From NCBI GenBank assembly GCA_002269645.1, contig NIVC01000067.1, positions 310,001 to 374,000 of the forward strand: 64,000 nucleotides of DNA, written 5' to 3'. Positions 28,695-60,056 of this stretch are shown in pieces (position 1 is the first letter of the stretch; the number at the start of each line of letters is the position of its first letter). The translations under genes were made by a program, and so were the position numbers. The notes under the pieces were generated by a model, which saw only the letters and a program-made list of their open reading frames with translations, made no database searches and had not been told where the DNA came from. The stretch is from Macrostomum lignano. Its lineage: Eukaryota.

Positions 28695-28724
28695 TATTTT
28701 ATTTTAAATTTTCTTTTTAAAAAA

Positions 28725-29761: not shown

Positions 29762-29777
29762 AATATTAAAATAAAAA

Positions 29778-38263: not shown

Positions 38264-38267
38264 GGGT

Positions 38268-38664: not shown

Positions 38665-39246
38665 AGTAGTAGTATGTTATAAGGGGCTGCGCCACACTTA
38701 TCGCTCGGGCGCATTACGCGCCAGCTCGCTGGATGACTCAGCCCCTTATAACATACTACTACTACCAGGTGGTCATGGATTCAAGTGTGTGTGTGATAAA
38801 TATAAAAAAAAAATATATAAATATACATATATCTGTGCCTGAGGGTGTTGAGGGTGAGGGCATGTGGGGGGCATTGGCCTGTGGTATATTTCTCAGAAGA
38901 CAGAATTTCCGGATTTTTATACTTTTAAAAAGGGGGGGTGCCCTCGCCCTCATGCCCTCACTCATTTTGAAAATCACTAAAAATAACTGAAAAATGACTA
39001 AAAACAGGTGAAAATGGTCTGAAAACAGCGATTTTTTGTGATTTTCTATTTTTTTTTAAAAAGTGCAATTTTCACGATTCCAGCTCTAAAACCATGAGAA
39101 AGGTTGGATCCTCGGGTCAATTTAATGCAATTTCAGGTATATACAATATGAAAGTGTCATCCAATTCAACGATAGTAAATTTTATATATATAAAATGGCC
39201 TTCAGTAAACCATTATTTCTAGGAAATGCTTTAGATATTCAGTCAG
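38665..39246 (+). repeat. left TIR of Polinton 2 (582 bp)
   Basis: Inverse of 56348-56913; about 16 substitutions and 4 indels by eye. Confidence 0.95.
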
Positions 39247-39288
39247 GTATAGACATAATTGACAATTAGGCATAATCGCCATATAAAA

Positions 39289-40029: not shown

Positions 40030-40054
40030 TATTGTATAATTTTTTTTCTAGAAA

Positions 40055-43000
40055 ATGGAAAGGAAAATACCAGCGGCCTCTTATGAATATGATCTCGACT
40101 CCGTTGAAGAAATTCGCGGTTTAATCTCCCCAATTCTTTCCGAATATTTGATGGCTAGAGATTCAATAAAATACAGAATTTCCTTTGTCGCAGAATTTTA
40201 TAAAGGAACTACCGACAGTTGGATTGAGTTCCAATATCATTCAAAGTATCGAACTTTGTTAAATCTTCTCCAAGTGGAAACTAGTATAGAAAGTACAATT
40301 CAGGATGTTCTGGATGAATTCGATGGATGGAAGGATAGTTTTAATGAAAGGGGATCAGGATATTATTTTGTTAAGTTAGTAAAGATTGTGTTGAAAGTTG
40401 TTGGCATTAATCAGTTGAAAGGAGGAACTTATATTCTAATTCCAATTAAATCAAACGCATTAGTAAATGTTAAGAACACTAAAGACAATAGGTGCTTTCT
40501 CTGGTCTATTTTAGCAAAGCTCCATCCTGTGAAGGAACATAGATATAGAGTTGGTAAGTATACACAGTATATAAATGAAATAAACTTAGGAGACGTTAAA
40601 TTTCCAGTGGACATTCGAGATATCTCTGAGATTGAAAAGTTGAACAGTCTTCATATAAATGTGTTTGGATTGAGGGATATAAATACTAAAGAGTCAATAT
40701 ATTCTATTCGTCTGACAGAAGATTACGACAACCCCAATGTTATTGATTTACTACTTGTTGAAAATCATTATTGCTTAATAACAGACTTGTGTTTATTCCT
40801 CACGTCCCAAAATTACAACAGGGTTTTTCTTTGTCGAAAGTGTCTTCAAGTCAAATACTCCCAGGATGCACTGGATAATCATAAAGCAATCTGTAATGAC
40901 TTCAAAGTGTCAATTGAAGTTCCAAAGATTGATAAGAGGATATTAAAGTTTAAAAACTACCACATGAGTGTAAGAAAACCATTTGTGTTTTATGCAATAT
41001 TAGATTATGTAACGATGGATGATAAATCACTAGAGCTATCACAATGGACACTTTTTACTAGTTCCGACTATGAGGACATTATAAAATCAAATATTATTTT
41101 AAATACTACAGTGGAATCATTCGTTGAAACCGTAATAAAAAAGTTTGAGCATATAAAAAATGAAATGGATAGATATAAACATCCAAGATTAAGTGATGTC
41201 GAAGAGACTGATTACAAAGCGGCAGAACAATGTTTTCTCTGCTCAAGGCCATTTGTAGATAGTAAAAAAATTCGAGAGCATAATCACTACAATGGTAAAT
41301 ATCGCGGCGCAGCATGTCAATCATGTAATACCAAGGAGGGCAAGGCGAATCAAACGGTACCGTTGTTTCTCCTGAATGAATCTGGAAAAGATCTAAACTA
41401 TTTGATAGTTCCATTAACACGAATAAAGAATACAGCTTATAAATTGGATTTCATTTCTAAAACATCGGAAGACCATGTTGCAATTAAGTGGGGGAATTAT
41501 ACCAGTGGTGTTGTGTTTTTAGATGGATCTAGGTTTTTGGAACCACCATTTACACTCTCTGAAGAAGAAATAAAATATTTGCCACCCAGTGATACAACAG
41601 CAGTAATTAGAAAGATTTACTCATTTGTCAACGCTTTTGAGAAGTTTCGATCAACATTTTTGAAATATTTCAAGATAGATCCTGCGTATTGCTTTTCCCT
41701 TTCTGGATTATCGTGGGCATGTGGGTTGAAATATACTAATGTGGAATTGGAATTACTTGGTGATAAAGAAATGATATCCATGGTAGAAAGTGGTATTCGC
41801 GGCGGTTTCTCTGGAGTTCTTGGAGATCGATATAAAAAAATGAATAACAAGTATTTAGAAAGTTATGACAGCAATTCTGAATCGTCGTACATGCTATACT
41901 TGGACAAGAATAATTTATATGGTGAAGCAATGATGAAAAATCTACCTGTGGGAGATTTCAAGTTTGAAAATGATCTAGAGTATCACAAGAATATTCCTAA
42001 TGGCAGGGGTTGTTTTCTTGAAGTTGACCTTGAATATACAGAGGAATGTAAGAAAGCTACAAGTAAATATCCACTGGCTCCTGAGAAACGAACAACTAGG
42101 TTTGAGGATTTATCTGATATACAGAAGCAATATCGAAGTCGAAAAGAAAAAGTTTGTTCAATCCAAGTTGATGTTGACATTTTACAACAAGGAGAAATAT
42201 GTTTTACATCACAGACTACTTGAGTTTTATGAGAAGATGGGCATGCGAGTATGAGAGTTCATAGAATTCTTTCATTCAAAGAGTCAAACTGGTTGAGTAA
42301 ATACATCGAATTTAATACCAGGCAGAGAATGGAAGCAAAAACTAAATTTGAGAAAGACCTGTGGAAACTACTGAACAATTCATTCTACGGTAAAACAATC
42401 GAAAATGTAAAGAATAGGTCGAACTTTCATCTTGTAGCTGAAGAAAAAACTGCAAGGCGTTATTTTTCCAAACCAAATTTCAAAGATTTCATTATGTTTA
42501 GTGAGGATGCAGTTGGTGTCCAAATGTACAAAAAGACAATTGCGTGTGACAAGCCAATTTATTTAGGAATGGCTATTCTGGATTATGCAAAAATGCTAAT
42601 GTACGATTGCTATTACAATTTTATTGAGAAGAATTGGAACAGCTGTCAATTGCACTATTCTGATTGTGATTCGCTAATATTCTCAGTGATTACTCAGGAT
42701 GTTTATAGGATCTTGAAAAAATTAAAGAACACTTAGACACATCGGATTATCCAAGAGAGCATCCACTATACTCCGAGACGAACAAGAAAGTTATTGGAAA
42801 GTTGAAAGATGAAATGAATGGCTCAATAATTTCCGAAGCTGTATTCCTGCGGTCAAAGGAGTATGCTTTCACTACAGTTTCAGGGGAGTGTGTTACGATC
42901 AAGGGGGTTGATAAAAGCAGTACAAATATAAATTTTGAAACTTTTAAAAACATACTATTGACAGATTACAAAGATATTCAAAGAGGTAGAGTAAGTATGA

Positions 43001-43119
43001 CTGTATCTGAAAAAAATAAAATATATATTCGTGAGATTATGAAACAAACAATGAGTCCGTTAGATGATAAAAGATATTATTTGGATCCTATCAGATCTAT
43101 TCCTCATCAGCCAATGTAA
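40055..43119 (+). pseudogene. polB: protein-primed PolB of Polinton 2, three frameshifts, degenerate exonuclease
   Basis: ERGSG, DNRCFLWS..HYCLI, LDKNNLYG, KLLNNSFYGK, YSDCDS, KVIGKLKDE; shifts near 42140, 42250, 42708. Confidence 0.92.
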
Positions 43120-43140
43120 TCTCATTGATAACATCTTCGT

Positions 43141-45602
43141 TTATTTTTTTACACAGTAAAACAGAACATTTCTAGTTTCTTGCTGTTTACCATCTATCCT
43201 ACGCCTATATCTATCCTTATAATACTTACAATAGTCATTGTGATTCTTGAAGAAATCTGTTATGTATTGTTGTTGGAATTCACGTTTCTCACGTTGGGCT
43301 AGAGTCCTATAGTATTCACTCTCTGTTGCGGCAGTGTAAATTTCTCTAATAAGCAAAAATGTTTTTTCCTCAGTTTCTAAAAATTCATAATTCTCTTCAA
43401 AGAAGTGAGCAAACCAATTACAATTCTGTATGAATTCATTAGTGTTTTCAATTACGCTTTTCGATCGATATATTTCACCCTTTGTTTGCTTGAAAATTTC
43501 TAGTAGGTGTTTCATCTCAGCAAACTTATATTTATTCTTAAACTCCTCGGTCTTAAGATATGAATCGGCTTTATAAATGTGTTTCGCATGATCAATGATG
43601 TCGGTATCTGTTGTATATTTACATGGGTAATTAATATTTATAATTCGTCTTTTTTCTGCATCTCCAATATTTTGTCTAAAGTCAGGCTTGTTATTACATT
43701 CGACTATTAGGGTTGCGTGTAAAACGACATTACACTGGCTTGAATATAAATTTCTAGCTTGGATAACCCCACCACCAGTTAGTAATTTTATTGATGCATT
43801 GTTCAAGACACCACTTACTTCTTGACTGATAACCAACCTCTTTTTATTAATTTGTGCTAGGGCTGGTTGTGGCCTGTCTATTCTTATTGGTAAATTCAAA
43901 ACATCAGGACTCAGTGGTGCTGCATAATCAGATCCTAGAGTTCTAAGAAGTAGGTTGTCCTCAACCCCTTGCCATTTCCACCAGCGCCATCAAACATTAT
44001 AAAGTTTTCAACATTCTTACCCATTAGAGCTGTGGCTATAACGGATTCCCAACTTTTTCTATTTTCTGGATCGGGATGAATTTGGTTATGCAGATTAACA
44101 ATGAAGCCATAGTCGTAATCACTCACTCCAAGTACATCCGAGTAATTATATCCCACCGATTTAGTAACGTAATCGTCATATCTATACTCGCGAAACTCAC
44201 CTGTAAGGAGGTCGTATACTCCATCGTTAAACCCTAGCAAATTCCATTTCATGTCGAATTCAATTTCATTGTTAGTAAACCTCTCTTTGAACAAAGTAGT
44301 TACCTGTTTGAGTTTGTTGGCTCCTTGTATTGAATTTATATTCTTTATTGTACTCTGTAGTTTCTTTTCAAGTGCTTTTAACTTCTCTTTATCATCAGCC
44401 GCCTTCTTAATTGCAATTTCGAGTCTAGTCTTTCGGTGGTTTAACTCACTGCTAACAAGTTCTGATATTTTAAGAAATATGTCATTTATACTACTTAGTT
44501 CTCTCCACTTATCATCATCAAAATAGTAAATACCATCGCTATTGTAAATTATATTATTCTTCTTATATTCATAAACAAAGTTGGTTATGTTAACGTCAGT
44601 GAAATTATCATCAAGATACTCAATCCTACCATAGTAATCATATTTGCTTTTCCATTCCTTATATTTACAATAATTTTCTTCACTAGCCCATTTCTTCAAC
44701 GTACCGATAGTAAGTCTGTCCTGTGCATCAGCAGAGCTGGTATTGGTGCTATTCCACACATTTTTACATGCCTCGGAATCGAACTTATCATAATTTACTT
44801 TTGACCAATCAGTGAATACTTTGTACATTTCATCACCACTGTCTATGTCGCGGAGTATAAGTGCAACCTTGTACCAAGAATCATAGTCTTGGTTTTTGTG
44901 TTGTATTATACTTAACAACTTTGAAACTCCTTCACAACTGGGTGATGGAACGGTGCTTTTTAGTGCCTGTTTATCTTGTTCTTGGATTTCATTTTTATCC
45001 TGTCGCTTTATTAATCTATTTATCTCATCAAGAATTACATCTGGCATGTCTATAAGTCCCTCGCACTTTGTACGTTTGTATTCCTTCATTTCACCATCCA
45101 CATAATAGAAACCTGGTGGAGCAAATACTAAGCGGAATATCAAAACCCACACTTTGTTGAATCGTTACTTTCAATCCATCTACTTTGTTAAAGTAAAAGT
45201 GGTGTCCCTTGTTTGTCTGAACAACCCAATCACAATGAGTCATACACAGTTCATTCAACTCAGGGCATAGGTCAGCATTATCAATATCGATTACGGTTAT
45301 ATTTGAGTTTCTAGTATCTATCCAAATCATGTTGTCTACCTCTGGTCGAAATGGTGGGAGGTTGAATTCCTATCTGCTTTGTTTGGCATTCCTGACGGTA
45401 TTTTTTTCTTTGTTTTACTATTCCATGTTACACTGCAACTTCCGAATTTAAAATTAAGTTCTCCATAGAGATTAATTAGTTTATCGTACGATTTTGTTTG
45501 TTTTAAATTTGTCAATCTTGGTGGTGGGGCATCATGTTTTTGAAGCGGATCCTGTACGATCACAGGAGAGAAACTTGAATCGTTTTGATTTTTTCTTTCC
45601 AT
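43141..45602 (-). pseudogene. Prim-Pol primase + PriCT-2 + D5-like SF3 helicase, three frameshifts
   Basis: VIDID, TNKGHHFYF, YDSWYKVAL..WSK, GAGGNGKG Walker A, VISQE, ECNNKP; shifts near 45355, 45130, 43965. Confidence 0.88.
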
Positions 45603-45618
45603 TTTATTTAAAATAAAT

Positions 45619-45960
45619 TTAACAATATAATTCATCAGTTTCAATGTACTTCTCAAGGGTTATGGGGAGTTTGAAAATGTTCAACTTAAGCATGACGAAA
45701 AATTCATCATTCCTTATGTGCTGTCTTGAAATCAATGCCCATTTATCAACATGTGCAAGATATACTCTGAATGAATACAAATAAGGGGGGCATTTACAAT
45801 CGGTGTGTTTTAATATTTCTGCTTTATATTCATCGTAAGCTTTATCAATTTCTTCAATTAGTCGAGCCTTTCGAGTGGGTGTTTTTATTTGAGAGAAATT
45901 TATAATAGAATCATAATACTTTTGTGGCAGTGCATTTCGTACATTTGGGTTAGCTTCCAT
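45619..45960 (-). CDS. hypothetical protein
   Basis: 113-aa ORF with GAAAAATG start in a gene-dense block. Confidence 0.55.
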   Translation of the reverse strand: MEANPNVRNALPQKYYDSIINFSQIKTPTRKARLIEEIDKAYDEYKAEILKHTDCKCPPYLYSFRVYLAHVDKWALISRQHIRNDEFFVMLKLNIFKLPITLEKYIETDELYC

Positions 45961-46435
45961 TTTTCTATGAAAAATTTAACATTTTTGCTTTCTTTTGGGC
46001 AAATTTCTATAGATAATCCAACTTTAGCATTTTCTGTGTATCATTATACTTTGTCTTCTTAATTTTTCGCTACTTTTGCGCCTACTTCATTGGCAGCTTT
46101 TTTATTATTGACTGTCTTTGCGATTCCGGCTGCACCTGCCTGTCTTATGAGAGGTAGATTGTCTTTTAGTAAGTTGGAATGGTGCTTCTAGTATCAAAAT
46201 ACCTCTCCATTGTACTCTAGGGCTCACCTATTGTATACTCTCTTAGCTTGCGTGGATCTGTAACGGGGCACATTTTTGTCTATTTTTAGAAACAGAAAAA
46301 TAAACACAGGAACAGAAAGACTTTCAGACACCAAAGGCCAAACTCCATTGGGCTAAATGTGGCCTGCTCAAAGCGGTGATATATTTGTTTAAATTATTAC
46401 CTTAATAAATGTTTGATATCAAATCATGTTGATAA

Positions 46436-46750
46436 TTATGGCGCATTAGATGGTTCTATATCAGCGCGGCATGTTGGGCACCTAACCATGTTGCCCTCTT
46501 GAATTCCAGTGCGATAACATATTTCACAAACTACAGCTCGACAACATGCCATGGTAACGTTTGGTGGCCGTGGTTCGTGTTGGCAGATTGGACAAAGCCC
46601 TTGATTATTCCCCGGCTGAGCTGGATGGTTCTGTACTTGAGTCGGGTTATCCTCTGGTTGAATATCAGCTAGTTGGTGCTCCATATCTTGGCGATAAGCA
46701 ACCAAGCGCCTCTCTGCTTCTTGAACGCGACGTTTTTGAAGATAGTAGTT
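46436..46750 (-). CDS. RING finger protein (Polinton 2)
   Basis: CPIC..MACCRAVVCEIC..CPTCR; the frame is open upstream to ~46750, start uncertain. Confidence 0.7.
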   Translation of the reverse strand, partial: NYYLQKRRVQEAERRLVAYRQDMEHQLADIQPEDNPTQVQNHPAQPGNNQGLCPICQHEPRPPNVTMACCRAVVCEICYRTGIQEGNMVRCPTCRADIEPSNAP

Positions 46751-46819
46751 CTAGGAAAGGGTTTGGTGCGCTCGTATATGATTTTTGTAAACTAAAACCT
46801 TATAATGTAAAAACACTTT

Positions 46820-47011
46820 TTAACTAACCTTTAGCTGATTAAAGAAGCGCTCTTCATTAGCCAAATTTTGTGGGTTATACTCCAAAAAGATGTTGATGGC
46901 AATATCTCTAAACATTGAGTTCCTATGGTGTTGTCGCAAATTTCGCTCTCGAATTCTAAGAGTTGCTCTAGCGGCAGTAAGCCTCTCGTGCAAATTCGAG
47001 AAAGAAGGCAT
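46820..47011 (-). CDS. hypothetical protein, possibly the N-terminus of the RING gene
   Basis: ATG-started 63-aa ORF upstream on the same strand. Confidence 0.4.
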   Translation of the reverse strand: MPSFSNLHERLTAARATLRIRERNLRQHHRNSMFRDIAINIFLEYNPQNLANEERFFNQLKVS

Positions 47012-47227
47012 TGTAGGAATGATAATTTGTAAGAAGGTAAAGTTAGTAGAGAAAAATTACTAGACCTTGCCGCTCGTGGCCATTCATTTATATATTTTTA
47101 TGACAAAACGTCAGACCCCGCATTCCATTCAGACCAAAACACGAGACCAATTTTTATCTTTTTATTTTTCGAAATTTTCTTCTCGCGTTTTGGTCTCGCG
47201 TTTTGGTCTGAATGGAATGCATGACTC

Positions 47228-47708
47228 AGTGTAGCAAGAGTATAAGATAAAAAATATAAAACCCCGAATTCCTGTGTTAGTCATCGAGTGAAGTTTGCCT
47301 ACTTGCTTTGCTATCTTGGTCGGACAATAGCCGACCATATTGTTGCGGTGCGAGCTTGCTTCTGTGTAGCAAGAGTAGATGAAAAATATAAAACCCCGAA
47401 TTCCTGTGTTAGTCATCGAGTGAAGTTTGCCTACTTGCTTTACTATCTTGGTCGGACAATAGCCGACCATATTGTTGCGGTGCGAGCTTGCTTCTGTGTA
47501 GCAAGAGTATAAGATAAAAAATATACAACCCCGAATTCCTGCGTTACTCATTGAGTAAAGTTTGCCTACTTGCTTTGCTACGGTGGTTGGACAATAGCCG
47601 ACCATATTATTGCTCTGCGAGATTGCTTCTGTGTGTAGCAAAAGTAGATGAAAAATATACAACCCCGAATTCCTGCGTTAGTCACTGAGTGAAGTTTGCC
47701 TACTTGCC
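47228..47708. repeat. ~133-bp direct repeat, ~3.6 copies, intergenic in Polinton 2
   Basis: ACCCCGAATT at 47261, 47393, 47528, 47662. Confidence 0.9.
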
Positions 47709-47802
47709 AGCTTCCTAAGATAGTAATTTTTTGTTTATTGACCCCGTTGGGAGTTTTTGTACTTATGTTGTGTTTTTATGGTGACTATGGTATTATGTCT
47801 AA

Positions 47803-49181
47803 TTATGTGACAATTATGTCTAAAATCGGATAAAGTTGAAAGCCTGAAACAATAAGAACAGTTGATCCTTCAGTGGCTGAATTAATATGCACTCTATAAC
47901 CGGAGAATTTTTCGGTGGAAGCTACTTCAAAATATTTCATCACTCCAGGAACTAAACCAGCATTTTCGGTAGAAAAAATATTCCTAAAGTCTCTCTTGTT
48001 ATTGCTCCCTTTCAGAATAAAACTTTTTGGTTGATTTTTTATAATTTCACTACCTACTGCTTTGGTTCCTTTCAATCCGAATTTCCAAATTTGAATAGAT
48101 TCAGGAAGTTGTACTTCAATGTAAGAATTGGGTTCATTCCTCGATGCCCATTCTGAATTAGATACTATATAACCCCAATTATCTGACGTTTCAAATGCTC
48201 CTGATGACGCTACATTGAAACCCCTTTCTCTATAGTTTTGACGTGTTGCTAGTGAGGGAATATATCCTGTATAAGATTTGAAACCTAGTCCCCGCCTTAG
48301 TCGCAGCTCCACTGATTCAAGTGCATTGTCTACGTATAGCTTTGGTACAGCTTGAAGTCTATCTATAGGCCACACTAAATCATTAACCACTGTTTGTCTC
48401 TCAAGTAATTCAACTTTTGTAAGCTTTACGGAACCAGAAAAATTAAGAGAATAATGGAAATAATATGAGGGTTTGGGTATTTTTTTCCTAAGATGTGCAT
48501 TGCCCCTTCGTAGTTCAATGGGTGCACTTTGTTCAACAGGTGTCCAGTTTGTTCCATTTAGGCTCACACTAACAGACCAACCAGGCCACACCTCTCCTTC
48601 CAACTTTATCTCTACAACTTTCCTAGCTCTTTTCAAAATTGAAATCGTATCCACTTGTCTGAGTCATCTGCACTGCTCCATTCTGAAGCTGGGTTTGAAT
48701 CTGCAACATGATATGCTGCTGAAGAGTTATGAGAAGCGGTCACTTTCATGTCAGGATGGGAAGCGTTTGAAGTCAGTAATGAAAGAATATTGACTAATTT
48801 CGAACTCTCTGTACCTCCCGCAGTACCTTGCCTTTCTGCTAACAAAGTGTCAATCTCAGTTTTAGAATACATCTTAGTGTCAATTTCGGTTTTAGAATAC
48901 ATCTTAGTGTCAGTTTCGGTTTTTGTGTAGACATTGTTTACGCGCCCATGAGCATCGTCAATTAATTGTAGCATGGTGATATTCATTGCGTCACTATCTT
49001 CCTTTGAATAAGAGTCTGAAACATTTCTCTTTGCTAACAATAAATTATCTATTTCCTCTCTCTTATATCCTTCATTTTCATTGATGTATCGATCATCAGC
49101 TAACGCTATTGTTATTCCAGGTGCTATATCATTTGAATTTGACGAGTAACCAAATTGATTAGCAGTATTCTTGTAACTCAT
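47803..49181 (-). CDS. fibre/spike-like protein with YxKxEID repeats and discoidin (F5/8 type C)-like domains; one frameshift at ~48635
   Basis: YSKTEID repeats; EWSS..KWIRFQF; EWAS..SYIEVQLP..QPKSFILKGSN..FSGYRVHI. Confidence 0.65.
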
Positions 49182-49609
49182 TTTAATTGCTGCAAAATTT
49201 CATTATAGCTATCTCCTTTATCGATTCGATGTAAAAAGTACAGCGACATTTGACCACAAAATTTCTTATCTAAAGTTTGAATTTGTTCTTCCATGTCTCC
49301 ACATATTCTATTCTTTGTGTGATTAAACTTTTCCATAATTTCCAGTGTGGGCGGTAGTGCATAGGAATCAAAAAAATAAACCTTATCATGAGCTGAAAAG
49401 ATAGCTGAATGATGTATACCCCGTTCTTTCGAAGTGTGAATATTTGTCATAAAGTAACCATACTGTGGTAAATCAACAATTTCATCTCTCATGGCATAGC
49501 GAAATGGTTTTAACTTGAGATATTTTGCCCAATTTATCAGATCAATATTAGTCGTAGTGTCAGTCCCAAACTTTTGTTTAAATGCATTCCATGTCTCAGC
49601 TTCGCTCAT
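49178..49609 (-). CDS. adenain-like cysteine protease (Polinton 2)
   Basis: GIHHSA, FFDSY, QIQTLDKKFCG. Confidence 0.88.
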   Translation of the reverse strand: MSEAETWNAFKQKFGTDTTTNIDLINWAKYLKLKPFRYAMRDEIVDLPQYGYFMTNIHTSKERGIHHSAIFSAHDKVYFFDSYALPPTLEIMEKFNHTKNRICGDMEEQIQTLDKKFCGQMSLYFLHRIDKGDSYNEILQQLK

Positions 49610-49618
49610 TTTTAACAC

Positions 49619-50410
49619 TCATATTTGTCGTACGTGTAGATTTATAAATATTTCCTCGCCATCAAAGTCGTATAGAACACCAGACTCATCTTCGATGACA
49701 AAGTCGAATGTGCTCAACATGTTTGTAGTTAGTGGTAGGTACACAGGATTTGCAGGCTCTTGAATAATTTTACTTCCCATTGGGACAGAGAACGATGGAA
49801 TTGAAAGAAGTATTTGCTTATCAATTAAATGATTTCCATTGGCTGGATCAGTGATAAAACCCCCTTTGATATTGAGACAACGAACCATGATCGCACTTCT
49901 AGCTCCGTCTATCCGAGCTGGATTTGGAGCTCTCTCAAATGGTTTCAAATACACTTCCGAATTGAATCCCAACAGTCTTCTAAAGTTATTGGAATGTGCA
50001 TCCCTGAAATCAACTTGATACTCTGTGGCTAACCGTAACTCAACCCTACGCGTGTCTAGGCTTGCACTGAAAACAATAGCCCCCTCTTTCCAATCATTTG
50101 CAGCTGTTAGCAATCTTTGAATCTCGCTTGACAGACTTTTAACTTCCCAAGATCCTGCTTGAATCTTTATTTTCTTCCATGTTCTACCACTATCCCTCGA
50201 GTATCGCAACTCATTATTGCCTCCTTCAATATTGTTAATAGCATCAAAGACTGCAAACTTTTTTATACCAGCTTCGTATTCTCGATCTTCATACAAATTT
50301 ATCGGAGTGCCTAGAGTTTGTCGAAATGGGTTTTTAATTGAAAAGAAGTCAAATGTGCGTTGAAACTTTTTACTCAAGAGGATGTTGACTTTTTCTATTT
50401 CTTTTTCCAT
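49619..50410 (-). CDS. minor capsid protein (penton, single jelly-roll)
   Basis: LLGF, GSKIIQEPANPVYLP, IEDESGVLYDFDGE motifs; position in the structural block. Confidence 0.8.
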   Translation of the reverse strand: MEKEIEKVNILLSKKFQRTFDFFSIKNPFRQTLGTPINLYEDREYEAGIKKFAVFDAINNIEGGNNELRYSRDSGRTWKKIKIQAGSWEVKSLSSEIQRLLTAANDWKEGAIVFSASLDTRRVELRLATEYQVDFRDAHSNNFRRLLGFNSEVYLKPFERAPNPARIDGARSAIMVRCLNIKGGFITDPANGNHLIDKQILLSIPSFSVPMGSKIIQEPANPVYLPLTTNMLSTFDFVIEDESGVLYDFDGEEIFINLHVRQI

Positions 50411-50412
50411 TT

Positions 50413-51143
50413 TTAAGCAAGTAATTCTACTAGCTCTTTATCAACATTGTTATGTCCCTCTGCTTTTGCGGCTAGTAATGTCAACACTCTTTCACTGAGT
50501 CCAGATCCCGGTTTTACTCGATATCCTGGTGGATTATCTTTCAATATCCTTACTGCTTGCTTATAATTCCCACTTGATTTGGCCGCTGGATTTTTACAGT
50601 GTTCAATGAGGTTAACATAATCCTGCAATGTTTGCATCTTGAATTGCTTCAGCTCTTCACCATTTTCAGTTACTTTAGGCATTTTGAACAACTCTTCAAG
50701 ATCTTCAGAAAATGGCATTCGGAATTCGTTGACAATGATGTCCGACCTTGTTCATGGAATTCAACCTCTATTACAGATGATCCAAATATATATCCAGCAT
50801 CAGTTTTTTGAATCCGTATACTAGGCGCTGGTCTTTGAGTTATTGGAATCTTTCCAATTTCTTCAATTATTTTGTCAAATACTTCCAGAGGTTCAAATCG
50901 TCCTTTTGGTGTACTTAATTGCGGAACTGGAACTTTTTGATTCTGAAGTTTATCAACAAGGTTGGCATTGAAATCAATAAATTCATCAAGCTTTTCTGTG
51001 ACAGGTTTTTGAGCTAATGGAGCCACTCTTGCATATAAACTCTCTTCTCCAATTTTCAAATAGCGTTGAGCATCATTTCTGGATTTGTACGTTTCTCGCT
51101 GCTTTGCTAAATTAATGAGTTCTCTTATATATTCATTAGTCAT
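50413..51143 (-). pseudogene. conserved Polinton protein of unknown function, one frameshift at ~50740
   Basis: C-terminal GSGL..LTLLAAKAEGHNN motif; two ORFs join with one added base. Confidence 0.6.
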
Positions 51144-51145
51144 TT

Positions 51146-51919
51146 TTACAATGGGATTTTAGTTAGAACATCCTTATACAAATCTTGCTCATCCTCATCA
51201 GCTCTTGTATTTATATAGATATAGCCATACTTCTTTTTCCAAGCCTCTCTACATTTAGCCTTGAATATAGCGGGTTCATAATTCGTTTCTATATTTCTAG
51301 CAATGTGATTTAAGTTTGTATCTTTTTGTTTAAAGATTATGTAACATGTCGTATTCTCCCTGACAGTATTGCGATCTAGTTTGGTAAAATTTTGAGCTAG
51401 ATAAAAACCACAACAGTTTCCATGCCTGCCTCTCTGAAACAGACTTTCCTGAAATGTTTGATTAGCCTCTCCCAAAACATCGTCCAATATCACACATGTC
51501 TTTAGTCCATTATGAAAAATTTCTTCATTTGGAGTATGGGAAAGAGTGACAGGAATTTTCTCTATTACTTCTGAATTTTCTGATGTGCTTTGCACTCGAC
51601 CAGGGTTGGCTGCCTCTCGACAAATATGTCTAATATCTTCAGGAGATGCATCCTCACTCACCTGGTAGACATGATAGAGTGAGTTGATAAGAGAAGGTGG
51701 GAGACCATTTTCAAAGCCATATTTTAGAAACTGATACTCTGGATCCATTTGAGATGCTCTGGGAACATATAAAACTAACTCATTAAAGTCAACTAGTTTT
51801 TCAGGACTTGTAAGAATATGGAATAGTAAATATGTTTTACCCGTATTTGTAGCGCCGATAATACAACATAAAAGAGGATTAGGGAAAATAGGATCATGCT
51901 GAAATTTTACTTTGGGCAT
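51146..51919 (-). CDS. A32/FtsK-like DNA packaging ATPase
   Basis: GATNTGKT Walker A, VILDD Walker B, RGRHGNC..LAQ. Confidence 0.92.
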   Translation of the reverse strand: MPKVKFQHDPIFPNPLLCCIIGATNTGKTYLLFHILTSPEKLVDFNELVLYVPRASQMDPEYQFLKYGFENGLPPSLINSLYHVYQVSEDASPEDIRHICREAANPGRVQSTSENSEVIEKIPVTLSHTPNEEIFHNGLKTCVILDDVLGEANQTFQESLFQRGRHGNCCGFYLAQNFTKLDRNTVRENTTCYIIFKQKDTNLNHIARNIETNYEPAIFKAKCREAWKKKYGYIYINTRADEDEQDLYKDVLTKIPL

Positions 51920-51940
51920 TTAAAAAAAGAAAAAATGACC

Positions 51941-53305
51941 TTATTCGACGCGGGTCATTTGATATTCACTGGTAACTTTTATTACATTCTTTGTTTGTTC
52001 AAGAATTAGTGCAAAAGCAGTCAGCTCAACATTTGTTGACTTCTTGATAAATAATTGAATATTCACTCCACTCTTGACCAGAAACTCATCTTGAGCTGTT
52101 AGATCAAAGCAAAAGATTGGATAGATGGTTAGAAAGTCTTGTTTATTGAATGGAGGAGTTACACCGAAACGGCTGCAGATGTCTTCGTACATTTCATACG
52201 CTCTGTGAATGTCTTGAGCTACTGGATCAATTTCAACATAATCATTCGGATACATCACCTGATTTAATCTGACTTGAAGCTGGGTTATTTTCACTGCATT
52301 TGCTCCAGTTTTGTAAGACACATACTTGTGATCATTAACTATATATGATGGGTTGTTTACGTCATATTTGAAAGCTACAAAGATTGCAAGTGGCATATTG
52401 GAGATGTTGGCTATGTTCCATGTATATGGACTTCCTTGAATGAGTTGTGGTGGAACCGTTACCCTCTCTGGAAATGATACTGTAATGTCCTTGTTGAGTG
52501 ATTTTAGAAAAGCTGCTTCAGCACTGGGTGACAAAGTAATAGCAGGGATCCAAATCTCAAAGCTATTAATAGTTAACTTAGCTTCCGTCCCGGCAGCTCC
52601 AAAGAAAATTTCAGCATCGTTAGTCTTTCTTGTCCATGTGAATTTATATTTAATTCCTTTGCTAATCTTCTGCCAATCAAGGAACCCAATGAGAGGTGTT
52701 AATGATAGTTTGATTGTTCCACCTCTGTTTGGAGCATTAGTGACATTGTTATAATTTTCAAGCCTCCTAATGTATCCAGTATTCGAATCCTTCTTATTGA
52801 GTCTATTTTTCATAGCGATTGCTGCAGTTCTCACAGCTTCAGCATCTGCGTTGTTTGCTAGAGGTATATCAGAAACAGTCCCAGCATCTCCAGTGTCTGG
52901 AATCCATCCGTATGCTTCTCCAACTTCATTCATTAATTTTGAGTACATTACGGACTTTAAGATTGTGTCATACTCTCCAGGATCATTATAGACTTTCTTT
53001 GTTCCTCCAATGTCAACTATGAGTTGAGAGAAAAGTCTCATAGGCCAATTATGTTCTAGAGTAATGTTCGTATTCAAGTCGGTGTTATCTCGTTGTGTTA
53101 TTGAGTATTTTATACAACCGAATGCCTCTGACATGAGAATGTATGACTCTGTTGAATTGACTTCATGAACTATTTGACCTCCTGCAACATTGAGATTATT
53201 AGTGCTACCTGGAGTTGGAGAAATCTTAATATAGTCTTCTTTCTTTTTGAAAAAGCTAAAAGTTTTGTCCTCATATATGCTCAGTATATCCTTTTTGTTC
53301 TCCAT
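51941..53305 (-). CDS. major capsid protein (double jelly-roll)
   Basis: 454-aa beta-rich ORF, LQVRLNQVMYP and YPIFCFDLT motifs, next to ATPase and penton. Confidence 0.8.
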   Translation of the reverse strand: MENKKDILSIYEDKTFSFFKKKEDYIKISPTPGSTNNLNVAGGQIVHEVNSTESYILMSEAFGCIKYSITQRDNTDLNTNITLEHNWPMRLFSQLIVDIGGTKKVYNDPGEYDTILKSVMYSKLMNEVGEAYGWIPDTGDAGTVSDIPLANNADAEAVRTAAIAMKNRLNKKDSNTGYIRRLENYNNVTNAPNRGGTIKLSLTPLIGFLDWQKISKGIKYKFTWTRKTNDAEIFFGAAGTEAKLTINSFEIWIPAITLSPSAEAAFLKSLNKDITVSFPERVTVPPQLIQGSPYTWNIANISNMPLAIFVAFKYDVNNPSYIVNDHKYVSYKTGANAVKITQLQVRLNQVMYPNDYVEIDPVAQDIHRAYEMYEDICSRFGVTPPFNKQDFLTIYPIFCFDLTAQDEFLVKSGVNIQLFIKKSTNVELTAFALILEQTKNVIKVTSEYQMTRVE

Positions 53306-53325
53306 TTTTATAAGAGAAATTTCAA

Positions 53326-53778
53326 CTAAGCTTCATGAGGTCTAAGAATTATCCCATTACCCTGTTTCTCCTTTTCAACTTTAAAAGTCTTTAGCAGCCA
53401 CTTGACTGCTTCGCTGGGTACTTGTTCGACTCTTTTAGCCGCATCAACTAATACTCCACTCCCTTGAGCCTTTTTCAACTCTTCTAGTTTTTGCCGTTCA
53501 ATGCTTTCTATTGTCTTATTATGTTTAGCATTGTTGGCTGTATTAACACTTTTTGCAATCATTGTACCAACTCCTGAGGCTGCTCCGATACCACCCAAAA
53601 TTGCTGGTAGTAAGCCTAATAGAGGAATTATTCCACCTTCATGTTCTTTCTGTTTCTCTTGCAATTCTCGAATCTTCTCTTTAGAAAGATATTGCTTTTG
53701 CTTATTTACAGTAACATATCTTGGTTTTCCCTCTCGAACATATCGATTGAGTCTTGCTTCAGTGTTTTTCTCGCTCAT
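53326..53778 (-). CDS. core/membrane-active precursor-like protein
   Basis: EGG|IIPLLGLLPAILGGIGAASG; QGSG and QGNG sites. Confidence 0.6.
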   Translation of the reverse strand: MSEKNTEARLNRYVREGKPRYVTVNKQKQYLSKEKIRELQEKQKEHEGGIIPLLGLLPAILGGIGAASGVGTMIAKSVNTANNAKHNKTIESIERQKLEELKKAQGSGVLVDAAKRVEQVPSEAVKWLLKTFKVEKEKQGNGIILRPHEA

Positions 53779-53786
53779 TTTTAAGG

Positions 53787-54209
53787 TCAGAATTTCTTCA
53801 AACCATTGCCTTGTCTCAAAGACACTTGAGACTGTTCTGCTGTTCCTAGAGCCTTTTTAACAATATCTTGAATAGCCTTATTTGATTGAGAAGCTATCTG
53901 TTGCTCTTCTTCCATTCTTTTCTTTGCTTCTTTATCTCTACGTTTCTTTTTAATATATTCCAGTTCCTCACCTGCTTTAGACATGTCACTGTATGATTTC
54001 TTCGCATCGAATATGTTCTTCGCTGTGGTAGCTGTTTTACCTATTGCATCAGCTCCACTCACAATTTTACTTCCATGATTTGATAAAAAGTTTGTGACAC
54101 CACTGATCATATCACCAATTCCTTCACCCTCTTTATCAGCTAGTAGTTGTGAATCAGACGTTTCAATCTGACCTTTCGCCCGTTTGCAGTTTGTTCGATA
54201 GGCGCTCAT
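53787..54209 (-). CDS. core protein with a pVI-like amphipathic helix
   Basis: GEG|IGDMISGVTNFLS helix, basic C-terminal half, QGNG site. Confidence 0.55.
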   Translation of the reverse strand: MSAYRTNCKRAKGQIETSDSQLLADKEGEGIGDMISGVTNFLSNHGSKIVSGADAIGKTATTAKNIFDAKKSYSDMSKAGEELEYIKKKRRDKEAKKRMEEEQQIASQSNKAIQDIVKKALGTAEQSQVSLRQGNGLKKF

Positions 54210-55436
54210 TTTTAGTTGAAAAATTTGCTGGTAGAAGCTGGGATTTGTAAAATGATCCAATGATTTCTTCTCCATTCTCATCCTCAATAATGTAGGTTAT
54301 GGGATTGGAGTAAACTATTTTCTTTATCCTAAACACTTCTGAAATTTTCCAATATCCTCTTCGACCCTTTTCAAAGTGCTCCTTATATCTATAGATATGA
54401 ACTTTGTCACCTACTTTGAAGTTTGGTTTCTCATTTGAATACTCGAAAGTTGGCTTTGGTACTCGCTCAGGATGTTTAGATGCTTCTGAAGGAGTTATCA
54501 GAATCTCAGAATGGATTGTGTTGTTGTATTTTTCAACAATAGCTGGCAATGTGTGGAGCCACTTCTGATTACCCTGTAGATCAAATTCAAACCAGAGTTT
54601 ATTTGTGAGAGTACGATTGAACCTCTCAATCATTGCATTCTTGGACTCGCCATAAATTGAAAACATCTTGTTAATATATTCACCCTTTCATCCTTCTTTC
54701 TAATGTTGTCTTTTGAAAACGAGTATAGCTTGTACATATGCTGATTATAAAACTCCTTGCCTTCATCTACACAAAGTCTCTCTGATCGTCTTCCTGATTC
54801 CTTAAATACTTTTTGGAAAGCTTCTGCAACTTCCGCTCCCGTCTTTGTTTTCAAAGGAACTGCCCAGGCGTAACGTGTAAAACCATCTATGATAGTTAGA
54901 GCATATTTGTAACCTCTTTCGGGCGGTAGGATAATGATATCTGCATGCCAAATTGTGTCTTTTGCATAGTGAATCATTTTTCTAAATACTCTTGGCTTTC
55001 GATATTCTTTATGCAATTTTACTGCATCTTCATAGCTAAGACCCTTACCATAAATTGTTAGACAGTCAATACAATTGTTGGGGTTGTGAGTATGAATGCC
55101 TAATCCAAACCGAACTTTAGCCTTGATAATACGCTTTACTAGATTTCGAATGAGTCTCTCTTTCACAGACAAGTCACTGGTTGGAATAGCATCTAAATCA
55201 GCTATCATTTTTTCATCAGCTATATGCTTCTTTGCTAGAGCTTCCTCTGGATTTGAAGAAGTGTTTTCAGCATCTCTATAGTTTTTGTCATGATAGTAAG
55301 CAGTCCAATCGATTGGGTTAATTGGTAGACTGTCATACCGAGGCCGGTCTGTAATTGGATTGAGTCTCTTGTCTAAATTTGTACCCGGCAGTTGTTCCTC
55401 AATCTTTCGAAAGAGGCTGGACTTTATCTTAAGGCT
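54163..55436 (-). pseudogene. int: PLA2-like domain fused in frame to an rve integrase; frameshift at ~54685
   Basis: PGTNLDKRL..NPIDWTAYYHDKNY..ADEKM, then WHADI, IDGFTRY, VDEGKEF, IERFNRTL. Confidence 0.85.
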
Positions 55437-55503
55437 TCATCAGGATTGACCAGATCCTTCAGCCCCACCCCCATTAAGTCTCTGAACCTTCTCCATATCC
55501 TTG

Positions 55504-56189
55504 TCAACTTCGTTCGGACTTAGGAGCTTGGCTGCGGATTTCCACCATGTCCTCAAGCTTGTTACCATCGAACCATAGGTTCGCGGACGAAGTCCGATTG
55601 GGAACAGGAATTACCTGTGTTCCTTCAGAAGATTTCTCAACTGAAGTGGTACTTGAGGCTGTTATTGACGTACTAGAATCGGACGGAGTTCCCGCAATTT
55701 GAAGGTGTCGCCAATCACTAAGCACTTGTTTAATGTTGGTTATAATGTTTTTGTATTGATCACCATAAAGAAATTTCAATGCAAATTCTCCTGTTATAAG
55801 GGTGATTCCATTGTCTAGTAAAATATTCTTAGGTTCCTTTGTAGTTTTATTGATGCATACATAATACAACTGATAGATGGGATAAGAATTTTTATAGTCT
55901 AATAGTTTCTGATAATTCCTTTCACGACTTGATGAATGTCCGTGTTATCAGAAGATTTAAGCTCTAATGCAATCTTTCGCTCAACGTGAACCAGGTCAAT
56001 CTTTTTTACCTTCTCGAATCCAAAATAATTTTCTGCTAATATTTCATATAGTCTGCCTAGTCTCATTTGAATAACTTTAATCTTGTGTGAAATTATTAAC
56101 TCTTCTTGGAAAAGATCATGAAGAATTTGATCATGCCCAACCTTATCATCAATTGGTTTCAGAAGAATTTCTCGAATTGTTTGCTCCAT
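55504..56189 (-). pseudogene. PD-(D/E)xK restriction-endonuclease-like protein, one frameshift at ~55936
   Basis: QMRLGRLYE..IDL..ELKSSDNTD(N)SSSRERNYQKL when one A is restored. Confidence 0.65.
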
Positions 56190-56347
56190 TTTTACTATAG
56201 AAACTTTAACAAGTGCTTATTTGATGACTAGCAAGGACATTGACTTCCTCACTCAGGCCACTACGTAACCTGCAAAAGAATACCCTGGAATATGAAGTTC
56301 TCCTGGGTATTTTCCAGTGGCGAAGATGGGTGGTAGTTTTGTTATAG

Positions 56348-56913
56348 CTGACTGAATATCTAAAGCATTTCCTAGAAATAATGGTTTACTGAAGGCCATT
56401 TTATATATATAAAATTTACTATCGTTGAATTGGATGACACTTTCATATTGTATATACCTGAAATTGCATTAAATTGACCCGTGAATCCAACTTTTCTCAT
56501 GGTTTTAGAGCTGGAATCGTGAAAATTGCACTTTTTAAAAAAATTAGAAAATCACAAAAAATCGCTGTTTTCAGACCATTTTCACCTGTTTTTAGTCATT
56601 TTTCACTTATTTTTAGTGATTTTCAAAATGAGTGAGGGCATGAGGGCGAGGGCACCCCCCCTTTTTAAAAGTATAAAAATTCCGGAAAATCTGTGTTCGG
56701 TGAAATATTCCACAGGCCAATGCCCCCCACATGCCCTCACCCTCAACACCCTCACTCACAGATATATGTATATTTACATATCACACACCCACTTGAATCC
56801 ATGACCTCCTGGTAGTAGTAGTATGTTATAAGGGGCTGAGTCATCCAGCGAGCTGGCGCGCAATGCGCCCGAGCAATTAAGTGTGGCGCAGCCCCTTATA
56901 ACATACTACTACT
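56348..56913 (-). repeat. right TIR of Polinton 2 (566 bp)
   Basis: Inverse of 38665-39246. Confidence 0.95.
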
Positions 56914-56967
56914 GACAGTCACATTTTACTATGTTTAAAGCCAAAATGGATTACCGTTAGCAATATT

Positions 56968-59372
56968 GGGCCGTATGCAGAAAGCTTAGTCCAGACTAGC
57001 TAGTCCGGACCACAGATACTAAAAACACTAGATGGGTCACTTAATGCAAATTCGCTCGATGTCTGAATAGCCTACTCTCTTCTGGGCATATGAGCGCGCA
57101 AGACTATCGATTTTTGTTTTTCCACGTCAGCGCTATGGTTTGAGCCATAGACAAAAGTTTCTAGCAACGAAATTCAGCTTACTACGAGGGAGAATCAAAA
57201 AGTAGTAGTAGGGGTTCACCATGGCTTTCCTATGAGAAATCAGAGCTAAGCAAGGAGTGTATTTGTCTAACTTTTCTCCTTTGCAAGTACGCTATTTTGT
57301 TTTCCAAGTGTTGCCAAGACTAATCAGGGAGAAGCCACTTCAGAGAGAAGACGTCAATTAAGCGGCGCATCAGACTGTCCTTTCAGGAAGAGGGCGTTTG
57401 TGAAGTTACCATGAAGCTGATGAGAAAAAAGTTGCAAGACGTCTGCACAGAGCCAAATTTACCAGCCGGATCAAGCGCATCTTTTGCCGAAACCGTGCCG
57501 ACGACACGCACAGATGAGGTGCTTCAATGCAGTTTGCTTCTCCTGACACATCAATCGAAGCCATTGTTGCTGGCTACGTGTAGCAAAAAGTGGTGCACTG
57601 GATTGCCTGGATTGCAAGGAAACTCTGACCGCTCAAATCCCATCTGGAGTTCACTTGGCCAACAAGCAGTACAGTGTTGTTCACACTGGATTGACAGCAC
57701 CATCGTAAGCAGTTCTGGAAAGTTTCAGTCTTTTGGAATCTTTTTTGGCTCATTACCGAAGACTAAATTGCTGCAGAATCTCGTGAGCCATTCAATATTG
57801 AGACGCTTCCGACACGCAAATGTGACCTTCCCCTCGTGCTCCGTGCGTCAAGTTCGCTTGTCTCAGGCTGCATCACTGGTGCCGCTGTGAGGCCAAATCG
57901 CTGAAGGATAGGACAGTGCGATGTTCAGCAAGCAGAAAGATAAGTAAACCCAATTAACCTTTGTATTTGTAATAAACATTTGTATCAATAAATGTTTATT
58001 GATACAAATAAACATTTAGTATCAGTATTTCGAGACAGTATTTCGTTCTGTCATTCTTCTTCAATTTGTCGATGCACATTTGCTTCTAAGTTCAACTAAC
58101 TAGCTTAAACTAAAAAACTTTATTTGGTTTTTAAAAATGCTTTTGTCGTTCCCCATTGCTATACATGTATAATACTTATTTTTTTGAAATCATCTTTGTT
58201 TATATGAAAAGCTGATATGACCTGTGCATAAAAATACACAAGTGCTACGTGCATGCCACTATTAACAATTTTTCACGAAGCCCACATTTTTGCTCAAAGT
58301 TTTCATTGCCCGTCCGTGTGATAGAAAAATGAGGACCTGAAATGTCATAACTTTTCAATCTGCATCATAATAAAATTTTACTTGATGCACAAATATATCA
58401 AAAAAACTCTATACAGACGCCCAATTAAAAGTAGCTTATTCATTAAATAGGCGAGTGACCCATCTAGTGTTTTTATTATCTATGGTCCGGACTGGGTAGT
58501 TCTGTCTATGGTCTTAAAATCGGTATGCACAAAAGCTAGTCGCGACTACCGAGATTCGTCTAGGCTAGACTAGTCTAAGCTAGACAGAGCGCCCAACTTT
58601 AGCGCCTAGTTTCAATGATTTTTTTAGTTCTATGGCCCAAACCCCTGTAAATGCTTTCTGTTTATATACTGGGTCGCTAACTTAACCGTTCCTATACTGG
58701 TTCTCTGTGCATATGCGTACATACTTCTGAAATGTCAGCGACAACAGACTACGAAACAGTTCTTCTTGACATTCTACAAAGACATTCGGCTTCAATTTTG
58801 TCGAAGGGCCAAACCTTGAAGTCATTAGAGGACATTTTTGGAGCTGGCCCGCCTCCAGTCTTCTTCGTAGTTTTTTTCCTTAACTCGTTGCAAGATGTTT
58901 TTCCATTTTTTCTGCACCTGGTCGATCGTGTAATTGGTCTTGAAGTGGTCGTTTACTTGAGATGTTACGTCTTCCCAAGCGTTTGCCCTTCTTCGCCTGA
59001 ATGCAGGCGTTTGGCCCTTCGACAAAATTGAAGCCGAATGTCTTTGTAGAATGTCAAGAAGAACTGTTTCGTAGTCTGTTGTCGCTGACATTTCAGAAGT
59101 ATACGCATATGCACAGAGAACCAGTATAGGAACGGTTAAGTTAGCGACCCAGTATATAAACAGAAAGCATTTACAGGGGTTTGGGCCATAGAACTAAAAA
59201 AAATCATTGAAACTAGGCGCTAAAGTTGGGCGCTCTGTCTAGCTTAGACTAGTCTAGCCTAGACGAATCTCGGTAGTCGCGACTAGCTTTTGTGCATACC
59301 GATTTTAAGACCATAGACAGAACTACCCAGTCCGGACTAGCTAGTCTGGACTAAGCTTTCTGCATACGGCCC
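56968..59372. mobile_element. Harbinger/PIF-like non-autonomous element
   Basis: Perfect 43-bp TIRs starting GGGCCGTATG; ATT duplication at 56965-56967 and 59373-59375; Myb/SANT ORF; no transposase recognised. Confidence 0.8.
58825..59091 (-). pseudogene. Myb/SANT-like (trihelix) DNA-binding protein of Harbinger type, frameshifted and truncated
   Basis: E..LL.IL..H..IL..AWEDVTSQVN..YTIDQVQKKWKNI; KKTGGGP in the +1 frame after an A7 run. Confidence 0.8.
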
Positions 59373-60056
59373 ATTGAATCAGTTAATACGAGTATGTAGC
59401 CTAAGATGCGCTCGTAACAGCATCCATCTTTGACCTGTGGTATCTCAGATTCCCTCCTCGGTCTATGGCCTAACCCAAACCCCAATCCAAACTCTCCCTT
59501 TGATGCTCTAAGCAACTCCCAAGGACAACTTGATAACTGCCAACTTGACAACTTGGGTGAGTTCGCCACAACGCACCCAAACAATCGACGATACGACATT
59601 GCCACTATGCTCCAATCTGCTTTGCTTTACCTGATTAGCAGTATGTCAACGGTCAGCTCTTTGTAGAACATGCTCTATTTATCATAGTCAGCTCTTGTCC
59701 CGTTCTGTGACTGTTATTTTCCTCTCTGTTTGTAGTTCAGATGAAGAAAGAATCGTAAATTTTTTGCGAGTTTCCTTATACATGCTGCATGTACAGCTTT
59801 CCCATTGTGTATTTTCACGATGTTTACTTTATGTAATAAAACTATTCAACATTTAAGAAAACCGACCCGCACCCGCCTTCTGACTTCCTATCAAAAAGGC
59901 AAATATGATACGAGTATACATTGGCAACTGAAAGAATGTGCATACGGATGGGCCATAGAACAATGCTTTTAAACAAGCCTCATACTTTTTTCGCCATGAA
60001 TTGGCTCGTTTCCGGTCCTGAGTTATCAAGTTGTCCTTGGCAACTCCCCATTGGGT

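Follow-up and report, generated by a model that had tools for sequence, protein, structure and literature searches.

Homing endonucleases built on a restriction fold are known, with long recognition sites (PMC3424549, PMC3984707, PMC6083498). In I-Ssp6803I and in the EDxHD family with I-Bth0305I, such a nuclease is encoded in a group I intron, its open reading frame (ORF) overlaps the ribozyme core and the target is split (PMC3984707, PMC3424549); these systems come from prokaryotes, and the recognition site of I-Ssp6803I spans 17 bp (PMC3424549). Short-site cutters are found in eukaryotic DNA viruses, the chloroviruses and marseilleviruses, where competitor exclusion or breakdown of host DNA has been proposed as their role (PMC7253447). 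According to an excerpt of PMC10964413, the only animals with group I introns are basal lineages and a few sharks, and in nuclear DNA these introns occur solely within rRNA genes. Among Polinton-type elements in eukaryotic genomes, the protist Polinton-like viruses contain introns matching Rfam RF00028, which occur in few protist groups, measure 309–376 bp in a cryptophyte and have no annotated endonuclease (PMC12220804); two supplements of that paper hold no Eco47II or PF09553 entry. The adintoviruses, or animal Polintons, combine pPolB, integrase, capsid, ATPase, a parvovirus-like PLA2 and AGTAGT ends (PMC8502044); excerpts of that description and of one supplement mention neither a group I intron nor a restriction enzyme, and such an intron is not described in excerpts of PMC11296320, PMC10748475 or bioRxiv 10.64898/2026.10.13.758929. 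A literature search, mostly of papers outside subscription, found no description of an Eco47II-type intron nuclease or of an animal Polinton with a group I intron.

The window analysed here, a stretch of 64,000 nucleotides from Macrostomum lignano, holds an adintovirus-like Polinton in which a gene is interrupted by a group I intron, probably a mobile one that has captured an Eco47II-family type II restriction enzyme, a predicted GGNCC cutter, as its homing endonuclease. The arrangement recalls I-Ssp6803I, but the nuclease belongs to the Eco47II family, its predicted site is only 5 bp long and is missing from the entire carrier genome. With the Eco47II-family type II systems (PF09553; kin EcoO109I and AvaII) it shares the profile, the D...E-x-K residues, the fold and the predicted GGNCC specificity, whereas it is encoded in an intron of a eukaryotic virus, without a methylase in the element. 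The chlorovirus and marseillevirus enzymes are free-standing and self-protection is by methylation; here neither holds. Unlike in adintoviruses as described (PMC8502044), PLA2 and integrase form a fusion here. An animal-type Polinton with a group I intron in one of its protein genes would extend the known range of these introns.

The interrupted gene and its intron

The element and the interrupted gene comprise the following features.

38665–56913, no strand: Polinton/Maverick, adintovirus-like, 18,249 bp with AGTAGT ends (inverted repeats, gene set, site counts)
38665–39255, plus strand: left terminal inverted repeat (TIR; blastn), repeating the first codons of exon 1 at 39195–39251 (tblastn)
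56340–56913, minus strand: right TIR, holding the start of the PLA2-integrase gene
56268–56399, minus strand: exon 1 of the PLA2-like/integrase gene, 44 codons (88.6% identity to residues 1–44 of relative P0161)
55389–56267, minus strand: group I intron, 879 nt (Rfam RF00028, P0161 boundaries, P1, terminal G)
56230–56272, minus strand: intron helices P1 and P2 (fold of 56285–56225)
55389–55709, minus strand: ribozyme core (Rfam alignment, helix coordinates, folds)
54630–55388, minus strand: exon 2, coding for what remains of the PLA2-like domain and for the beginning of the rve integrase (PF08398, PF00665; P0161 residues 45–273)
54163–54687, minus strand: remainder of the integrase, shifted to a different frame (the alignments of P0160 and P0161 cover two frames)
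28594–28598, minus strand: cognate site without an intron, GGGCC within the Cys-Gly-Pro codons, in the PLA2 gene of a second, different Polinton (sequence)

The TIRs, of ~580 bp, are 93.4% identical over 593 columns, with 18 mismatches and 8 gap openings (blastn). The gene set consists of pPolB, primase-helicase, RING finger, A32 ATPase, double-jelly-roll capsid and rve integrase, assigned by Pfam or, for pPolB, by the match to the polymerase of the neighbouring element; pPolB, the integrase and the primase-helicase are each in pieces. No methyltransferase family was matched by Pfam in the 24 element frames scanned, in agreement with the first-pass annotation, which had seen none. A 6-bp target-site duplication is not seen, the six bases on either side of the element being different.

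The first-pass annotation had made the nuclease the first gene inside the right TIR, a position that is instead taken by the PLA2-integrase gene: its exon 1 starts at 56399 within the TIR, and the nuclease sits in its intron. Exon 1 ends with Tyr-Ser-Phe-Ala-Gly at 56268, the last residue being the Gly of the PLA2 loop, and exon 2 resumes the frame with Pro-Gly-Thr of the PLA2-like domain, which is fused to the integrase; the integrase is itself frameshifted between ~54640 and 54690. A search with the PLA2 part yielded 4 relatives among 27 candidates. One of them, P0161, is uninterrupted, its residues 1–44 corresponding to exon 1 and 45–273 to exon 2 without a gap, and since it is contiguous across the junction both splice sites are confirmed to the codon. 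P0161 is possibly an intron-less gene or a spliced transcript, and its only Gly-Pro sits at the junction. P0159 and P0160 begin in the translation of the intron's P9/terminal-G tail and thus probably represent two further alleles interrupted by an intron at this position. The longest contig listed for P0160, of 4,853 bases, is also the one given for the intact nuclease P0006, which suggests that they form one intact locus.

The clue to the intron was that the C-terminal tails of nuclease relatives resembled translated intron motifs. RF00028 matches 55781–55398 over the full model (1–253) with 88.9 bits (gathering 50, E 5.6e-23), and is the sole Rfam match in the window; phage DNA gave no match to the intron core. 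The P, Q, R and S elements and the P3–P8 catalytic core are present. P1 consists of 8 pairs, among them that of the last exon base, U at 56268, with G at 56258, and is followed by the P2 hairpin (56253–56230). P3 joins 55709–55702 with 55471–55466, P4 and P8 also lie in the core, and a long P5 extension (55686–55542) is followed by Q (55540–55527), R/P7 (55488–55475), S/P7' (55430–55420) and then P9.0 and P9 (55418–55397), which precede the terminal G at 55389. The minimum-energy fold of P1/P2 (56285–56225) takes up 61% of the ensemble with a z of only -1.7, compared with -3.0 for the P5 extension and -2.7 for the ribozyme core. The P5 extension is predicted to be stable and branched, with a GAAA loop and an unpaired ACAAG bulge, which we take to resemble subgroup IC1; P9.1 and P9.2 are absent, and no clear register was found for a P10 pairing with the 3' exon. 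Guanosine-dependent self-splicing is predicted.

The intron is inserted between the Gly and Pro codons, as GGT/CC, and neither of its ends recreates GGNCC. The nuclease gene lies wholly inside it and overlaps its core, the ATG being located 66 nt after an in-frame stop at the intron start.

The intron-borne nuclease and its family

55899–56189, minus strand: nuclease piece 1, a 96-codon ATG ORF; nuclease homology stops at 55938
55504–55944, minus strand: nuclease piece 2, a 146-codon stop-to-stop frame; nuclease domain to ~55710, then ribozyme read-through

The two frames share the overlap 55899–55944, and the first-pass annotation had joined them by a single added base into a protein of ~228 residues. 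Intact relatives span both pieces as single ORFs and align with the window as two abutting blocks, in frame -3 (56189–55938) and frame -2 (from 55938/55935), with E down to 2e-64, so that the pieces are parts of one nuclease gene with a frameshift near 55937. The joining was right, but the length had been inflated: from 55709 onwards piece 2 continues for its final ~68 residues as read-through into the intron catalytic core, which leaves a predicted nuclease domain of about 160–165 residues. As separate queries, piece 1 recovered a single relative out of 62 candidates and piece 2 recovered 7 out of 17, P0003 being common to both searches; the seven closest relatives are all single ORFs of 168–233 residues. 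A profile search gave 276 relatives at E<=0.001 in a 50%-clustered library, the best 150 of which were used, and the alignment contains 116 of 156 relatives, with fragments, long fusions and one short close relative left out. The profile built from these 116 matches just the two window frames (E 8e-27 and 5e-23), over profile positions 9–107 for piece 1 and 103–181 for piece 2.

The Eco47II-like character proposed earlier was borne out. The Pfam family RE_Eco47II (PF09553) is matched at E<=0.01 by 110 of the 116 aligned relatives and by all seven closest ones, two of which pass the gathering score of 25.9 bits. The scores are modest; P0008, P0009 and P0012 exceed the gathering score with 30.2, 26.5 and 31.8 bits. 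The window pieces alone give no PF09553 match, Pfam returning just a weak Tox-REase-9 (E 0.057), and NCBIfam, PHROGs and PADLOC give nothing for them and at most weak matches for P0012. The catalytic residues of the PD-(D/E)xK arrangement are conserved in the alignment, D in 114, E in 111 and K in 115 of the 116 relatives. Piece 1 keeps D65 (as K-I-D), with no Pro before it, E76-L-K78, and the conserved helix with E49, at the end of QMRLGRLYE (residues 41–49); the family motif N-T-D-N-S-S-S-R is split across the break, with N-T-D in piece 1 and SSSR opening piece 2. Two relatives outside the alignment, P0026 and P0094, are single-chain fusions of a C5 methylase and the nuclease, and the family therefore includes true restriction-modification enzymes.

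Structure models were made from intact relatives and not from the window copy's own protein: P0004, from 7 sequences (pLDDT 61), and P0012, from 116 sequences (pLDDT 94.8). In VIA the top match of both was EcoO109I, with Z 8.9, rmsd 4.3 and 165 aligned residues for P0004 and Z 7.5, rmsd 4.7 and 166 for P0012, the next match having 6.2 in either case. Foldseek ranked the type II enzymes Ecl18kI, EcoO109I and AvaII first (best E 1e-3 and 2e-3; TM 0.62 to the EcoO109I–DNA complex); the better model, P0012, had no Foldseek match at E<=0.001, and its best Z is below 8. The scores are moderate but concordant, and the modelled fold is that of a restriction endonuclease, as the first-pass annotation had expected from the motifs and proposed to check with Foldseek. 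Its suggestion of a link to giant-virus nucleases was not borne out as to origin, the BFVD matches being weak, distant nucleases (best E 2.7e-4, TM 0.39). The Atlas clusters of nuclease relatives are viral, with the phylum known for few members. A homodimer prediction scored 0.30 against a mark of 0.32, which speaks neither for nor against a dimer. The I-Ssp6803I family (PF11645) is absent among the Pfam and fold matches listed, none of 56 pattern matches in GTDB genomes was confirmed as a nuclease relative, and the phage and plasmid collections contained no relative at the sensitivity used.

Residence in an intron is probably not confined to the window copy. Compatibility of the C-terminal tail with a translated P and Q was found in 8 of the 156 relatives, seven of which are the closest ones; in these seven the P and Q elements are 37–38 codons apart, in two reading frames over the core, which indicates a family of introns and not a single case. 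The eighth, P0118, probably passes by chance, while P0008 stops short of Q and P0015 falls below the threshold. A quick, unrooted tree of the 116 rows, computed with no bootstrap and with the fusions left out, places seven tail-bearing rows in one branch (SH-aLRT 87), with P0015 nearby in a 22-row branch (SH-aLRT 95). The intron-borne group thus appears nested in a broad, mostly tail-less nuclease family. A sister branch (P0019–P0023, P0025, P0079) has in common a short tail at the C terminus, with Leu-x-x-x-x-Cys at its end, which does not pass the P/Q test and is possibly read-through into another conserved element.

The window copy is non-functional in the form sequenced, and is either dead or mis-assembled. 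The break is not peculiar to the nuclease, pPolB, the integrase and the primase-helicase being equally in pieces. Programmed frameshifting was rejected, as no slippery heptamer was found at the break and the close relatives are all single ORFs. That the break is a sequencing or assembly error, or a programmed shift, instead of decay after integration, seems to us doubtful: the many frameshifts across the element and the 8 gap openings between the TIRs would fit an indel-prone assembly, and no new GGNCC has arisen from the 376 one-mismatch words of the element, which would indicate few substitutions since insertion. Against this, the 18 substitutions in the 593 TIR columns fit real decay, and this divergence predicts just ~2 new GGNCC sites, so zero is unremarkable. 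The inactivation may reflect toxicity, though other genes are broken too.

GGNCC sites and the proposed homing mechanism

Eco47II homologs cleave GGNCC after the first G (PMC10305163). Family membership alone does not fix a recognition site, and GGNCC specificity is predicted here from the Eco47II family, the insertion site and the purge of the genome taken together. As to the structural kin, EcoO109I recognises RGGNCCY and AvaII recognises GGWCC.

The 18,249-bp element contains no GGNCC, where 14.6–21 sites would be expected. Dinucleotide shuffles (n=60) gave 21.2±4.2 (z -5.0), the maximal-order Markov model 14.6 (Poisson P 5e-7), and codon shuffling 14.9±3.8, with zero sites in 0 of 1000 trials; even with the proteins fixed, synonymous resampling gave 6.0±2.4 sites and reached zero in only 2 of 1000. 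The other 15 palindromes of this form have z between -2.6 and +2.7, among 256 gapped words GGNCC has the lowest ratio, followed by one at 0.77, and the four most depleted 5-mers are the four GGNCC words, so that GGWCC and GGSCC are both missing. The proteome is affected as well. Gly-Pro codons always spell GGNCC, and the 4,687 residues of the element contain no Gly-Pro dipeptide against 7.9 expected (Pro-Gly occurs 10 times). The next GGNCC lies 55 bp outside the right end of the element, and 18,707 bp of host flank clear of tandem arrays contain 45. The neighbouring Polinton pieces have 6 in 7,667 bp, one of which is the uninterrupted Gly-Pro of their PLA2, somewhat low against 5.5–11.2 expected; the deficit of the whole window (56 versus 111 by shuffle) is due to the element and the tandem arrays. 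Chance or CpG loss was rejected as the cause, because CpG is dispensable in three of the four GGNCC words, CCNGG occurs as often as expected (21 versus 21.6) and the flanks are undepleted, and so was a 7-bp site of the EcoO109I type (RGGNCCY), which would leave about three quarters of the sites (~16). GGCGCC is also absent from the element (0 versus 6.4, both strands), a weak signal that may be chance.

The Walker A of the element's ATPase (51146–51919) reads G-A-T-N-T-G-K-T. Relatives of this ATPase often have Gly-Pro in Walker A, and its absence here may be a cost of the purge at the protein level.

With less assurance than for the captured enzyme itself, we favour a wider reading, in which an animal-associated DNA virus lineage would use a five-base restriction enzyme as a homing endonuclease, its genome and proteome rewritten without the site and hence without Gly-Pro, and the single indispensable site hidden under a self-splicing intron. 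Specificity would come from the purged genome and not from the enzyme, short-site homing would double as a weapon against competitors, and a group I intron would reside in a protein-coding gene within animal nuclear DNA. The lineage would have purged every GGNCC, even losing all Gly-Pro dipeptides, except for one that could not go: the PLA2 loop keeps its Gly-Pro and, as Gly-Pro always spells GGNCC, one unavoidable site. The intron would split this site in the DNA and splice itself from the RNA, giving a working gene in a genome without the target. When an intron-less purged sibling is present in the same cell, a single cut straddling the insertion point would be repaired by copying the intron; P0159 and P0160 are candidate intron-plus alleles, and P0161 (possibly a transcript) and the neighbour's PLA2 gene are uninterrupted ones. 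Unrelated DNA with many sites, such as other Polintons, a helper virus, or host chromatin if reached, would be shredded, with a competitive gain for the carrier that makes the intron hard to lose, and, as the site would become accessible if only the intron were lost, the arrangement would stabilise itself. The nuclease would probably be translated from unspliced RNA or from the excised intron, starting at its own ATG.

Self-immunity would consist of site purging and intron masking, with no protective methylase, as a five-base cutter without a methylase would be tolerable only in a genome free of sites. PacI, which recognises eight bases, offers a precedent for a restriction enzyme that lacks a methylase and resides in a genome lacking its site. 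The usual view is that homing endonucleases require long sites and that short-site restriction enzymes require a methylase. The short-site enzyme appears able to home safely because its carrier holds no other site, which would offer a testable direct route from restriction enzyme to homing endonuclease. Counting against the mechanism, a five-base cutter should be lethal to the host nucleus; host chromosomes might escape by silence of the enzyme while the element is integrated, by cytoplasmic replication or by partial CpG protection. The attack on co-infecting or resident elements proposed by the first-pass annotation is, by analogy, probably a side function, the primary role being more likely intron homing, and the truncated neighbour, suggested as a target, shows no tie beyond its 6 retained sites. 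A genome-wide purge would imply that the elements replicate as free, unmethylated DNA beside active enzyme, meeting competitors, and thus bears on whether and where animal Polintons live as viruses. Depletion of GGNCC could also serve as a cheap signature for surveying this intron-nuclease family.

An improbable alternative, and the one that survives best, is that the purge was driven by an outside enzyme, perhaps from GGNCC restriction-modification in a helper virus or a co-resident microbe. The intron would then shield the indispensable site, and the nuclease would be a later passenger of little importance for spread. It accords with the methylase-fused members of the wider nuclease family, with the use of restriction-modification by giant viruses against competitors (PMC7253447), with P0161, whose sole Gly-Pro is that of the junction, as though the site were avoided in its lineage as well, and with the mildly low GGNCC count of the neighbouring Polinton. 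However, the nuclease is intact, with its catalytic residues kept, in the seven tail-bearing relatives and in two frames over the core, which indicates selection on the nuclease inside the intron, and an intron that encodes a nuclease of the matching family and occupies that nuclease's own site is the textbook case of homing. The insertion, at GGT/CC, would destroy the target of the nuclease, given the predicted specificity.

We regard as very unlikely an ordinary long-site homing endonuclease with a restriction fold, like I-Ssp6803I, with GGNCC merely at the centre of its site. Most characterised homing endonucleases have sites above 14 bp (PMC3984707), and a long site would spare the host; it would leave the zero GGNCC in 18 kb unexplained, however, and the intron-borne members have a domain of just ~160 residues, without an extra DNA-binding module. 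The genome purge argues for a recognition site of 5 bp and not of more than 14 bp. Least probable of all is that the nuclease is a free-standing viral enzyme that degrades host DNA or senses methylation, the intron being incidental, since, although chlorovirus restriction enzymes break down host DNA (PMC7253447) and the G that follows the insertion site puts the site's last C in a CpG context, the gene lies wholly within the intron over its core, the insertion point is the family's site, an integrating element gains little by destroying its host, and no result points to the methyl-dependence that the first-pass annotation had entertained.

Surroundings and further features of the element

The left end of the element abuts a second, different, truncated Polinton, which it has cut off. 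This lies in pieces (28245–30233 and 34445–38664) and contains PLA2, integrase, pX-like and adenain genes and an unbroken pPolB of 1,127 codons. The flanks of the element are rich in satellite. An animal host agrees with these flanks, with the adintovirus-like gene set and its PLA2-like domain (PMC8502044), with a Myb/SANT transposon ORF and, weakly, with an Atlas cluster that is 60% eukaryotic and has Mollusca as the most frequent phylum among the 5 members assigned to one. No tRNA genes were found, and a sigma-70 scan, for a bacterial signal not relevant to a eukaryotic element, found nothing.

The TIR includes the start of the PLA2-integrase gene (56343–56399), and the second, truncated copy of this start at 39195–39251 is upstream of a 246-codon ORF (39289–40029) that adjoins the left TIR. 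This ORF has a weak SLATT two-transmembrane likeness (E 0.03), and its look-alikes in the Atlas belong to viral and eukaryotic clusters. The RING-finger ORF shares the region 46436–47707 with 3.6 copies of a 132-bp tandem repeat, and a 31-bp inverted repeat flanks them. Many ORFs of the element, including the nuclease and exon 1, start after an A run (TAAAAATG-like). Such starts are reminiscent of poxvirus late starts and may bear on cytoplasmic expression. Outside the right end, a Myb/SANT-like ORF lies within long, perfect nested inverted repeats (58454–59373), probably a non-autonomous Harbinger-type transposon, with a 44-bp inverted match at 56967–57010.
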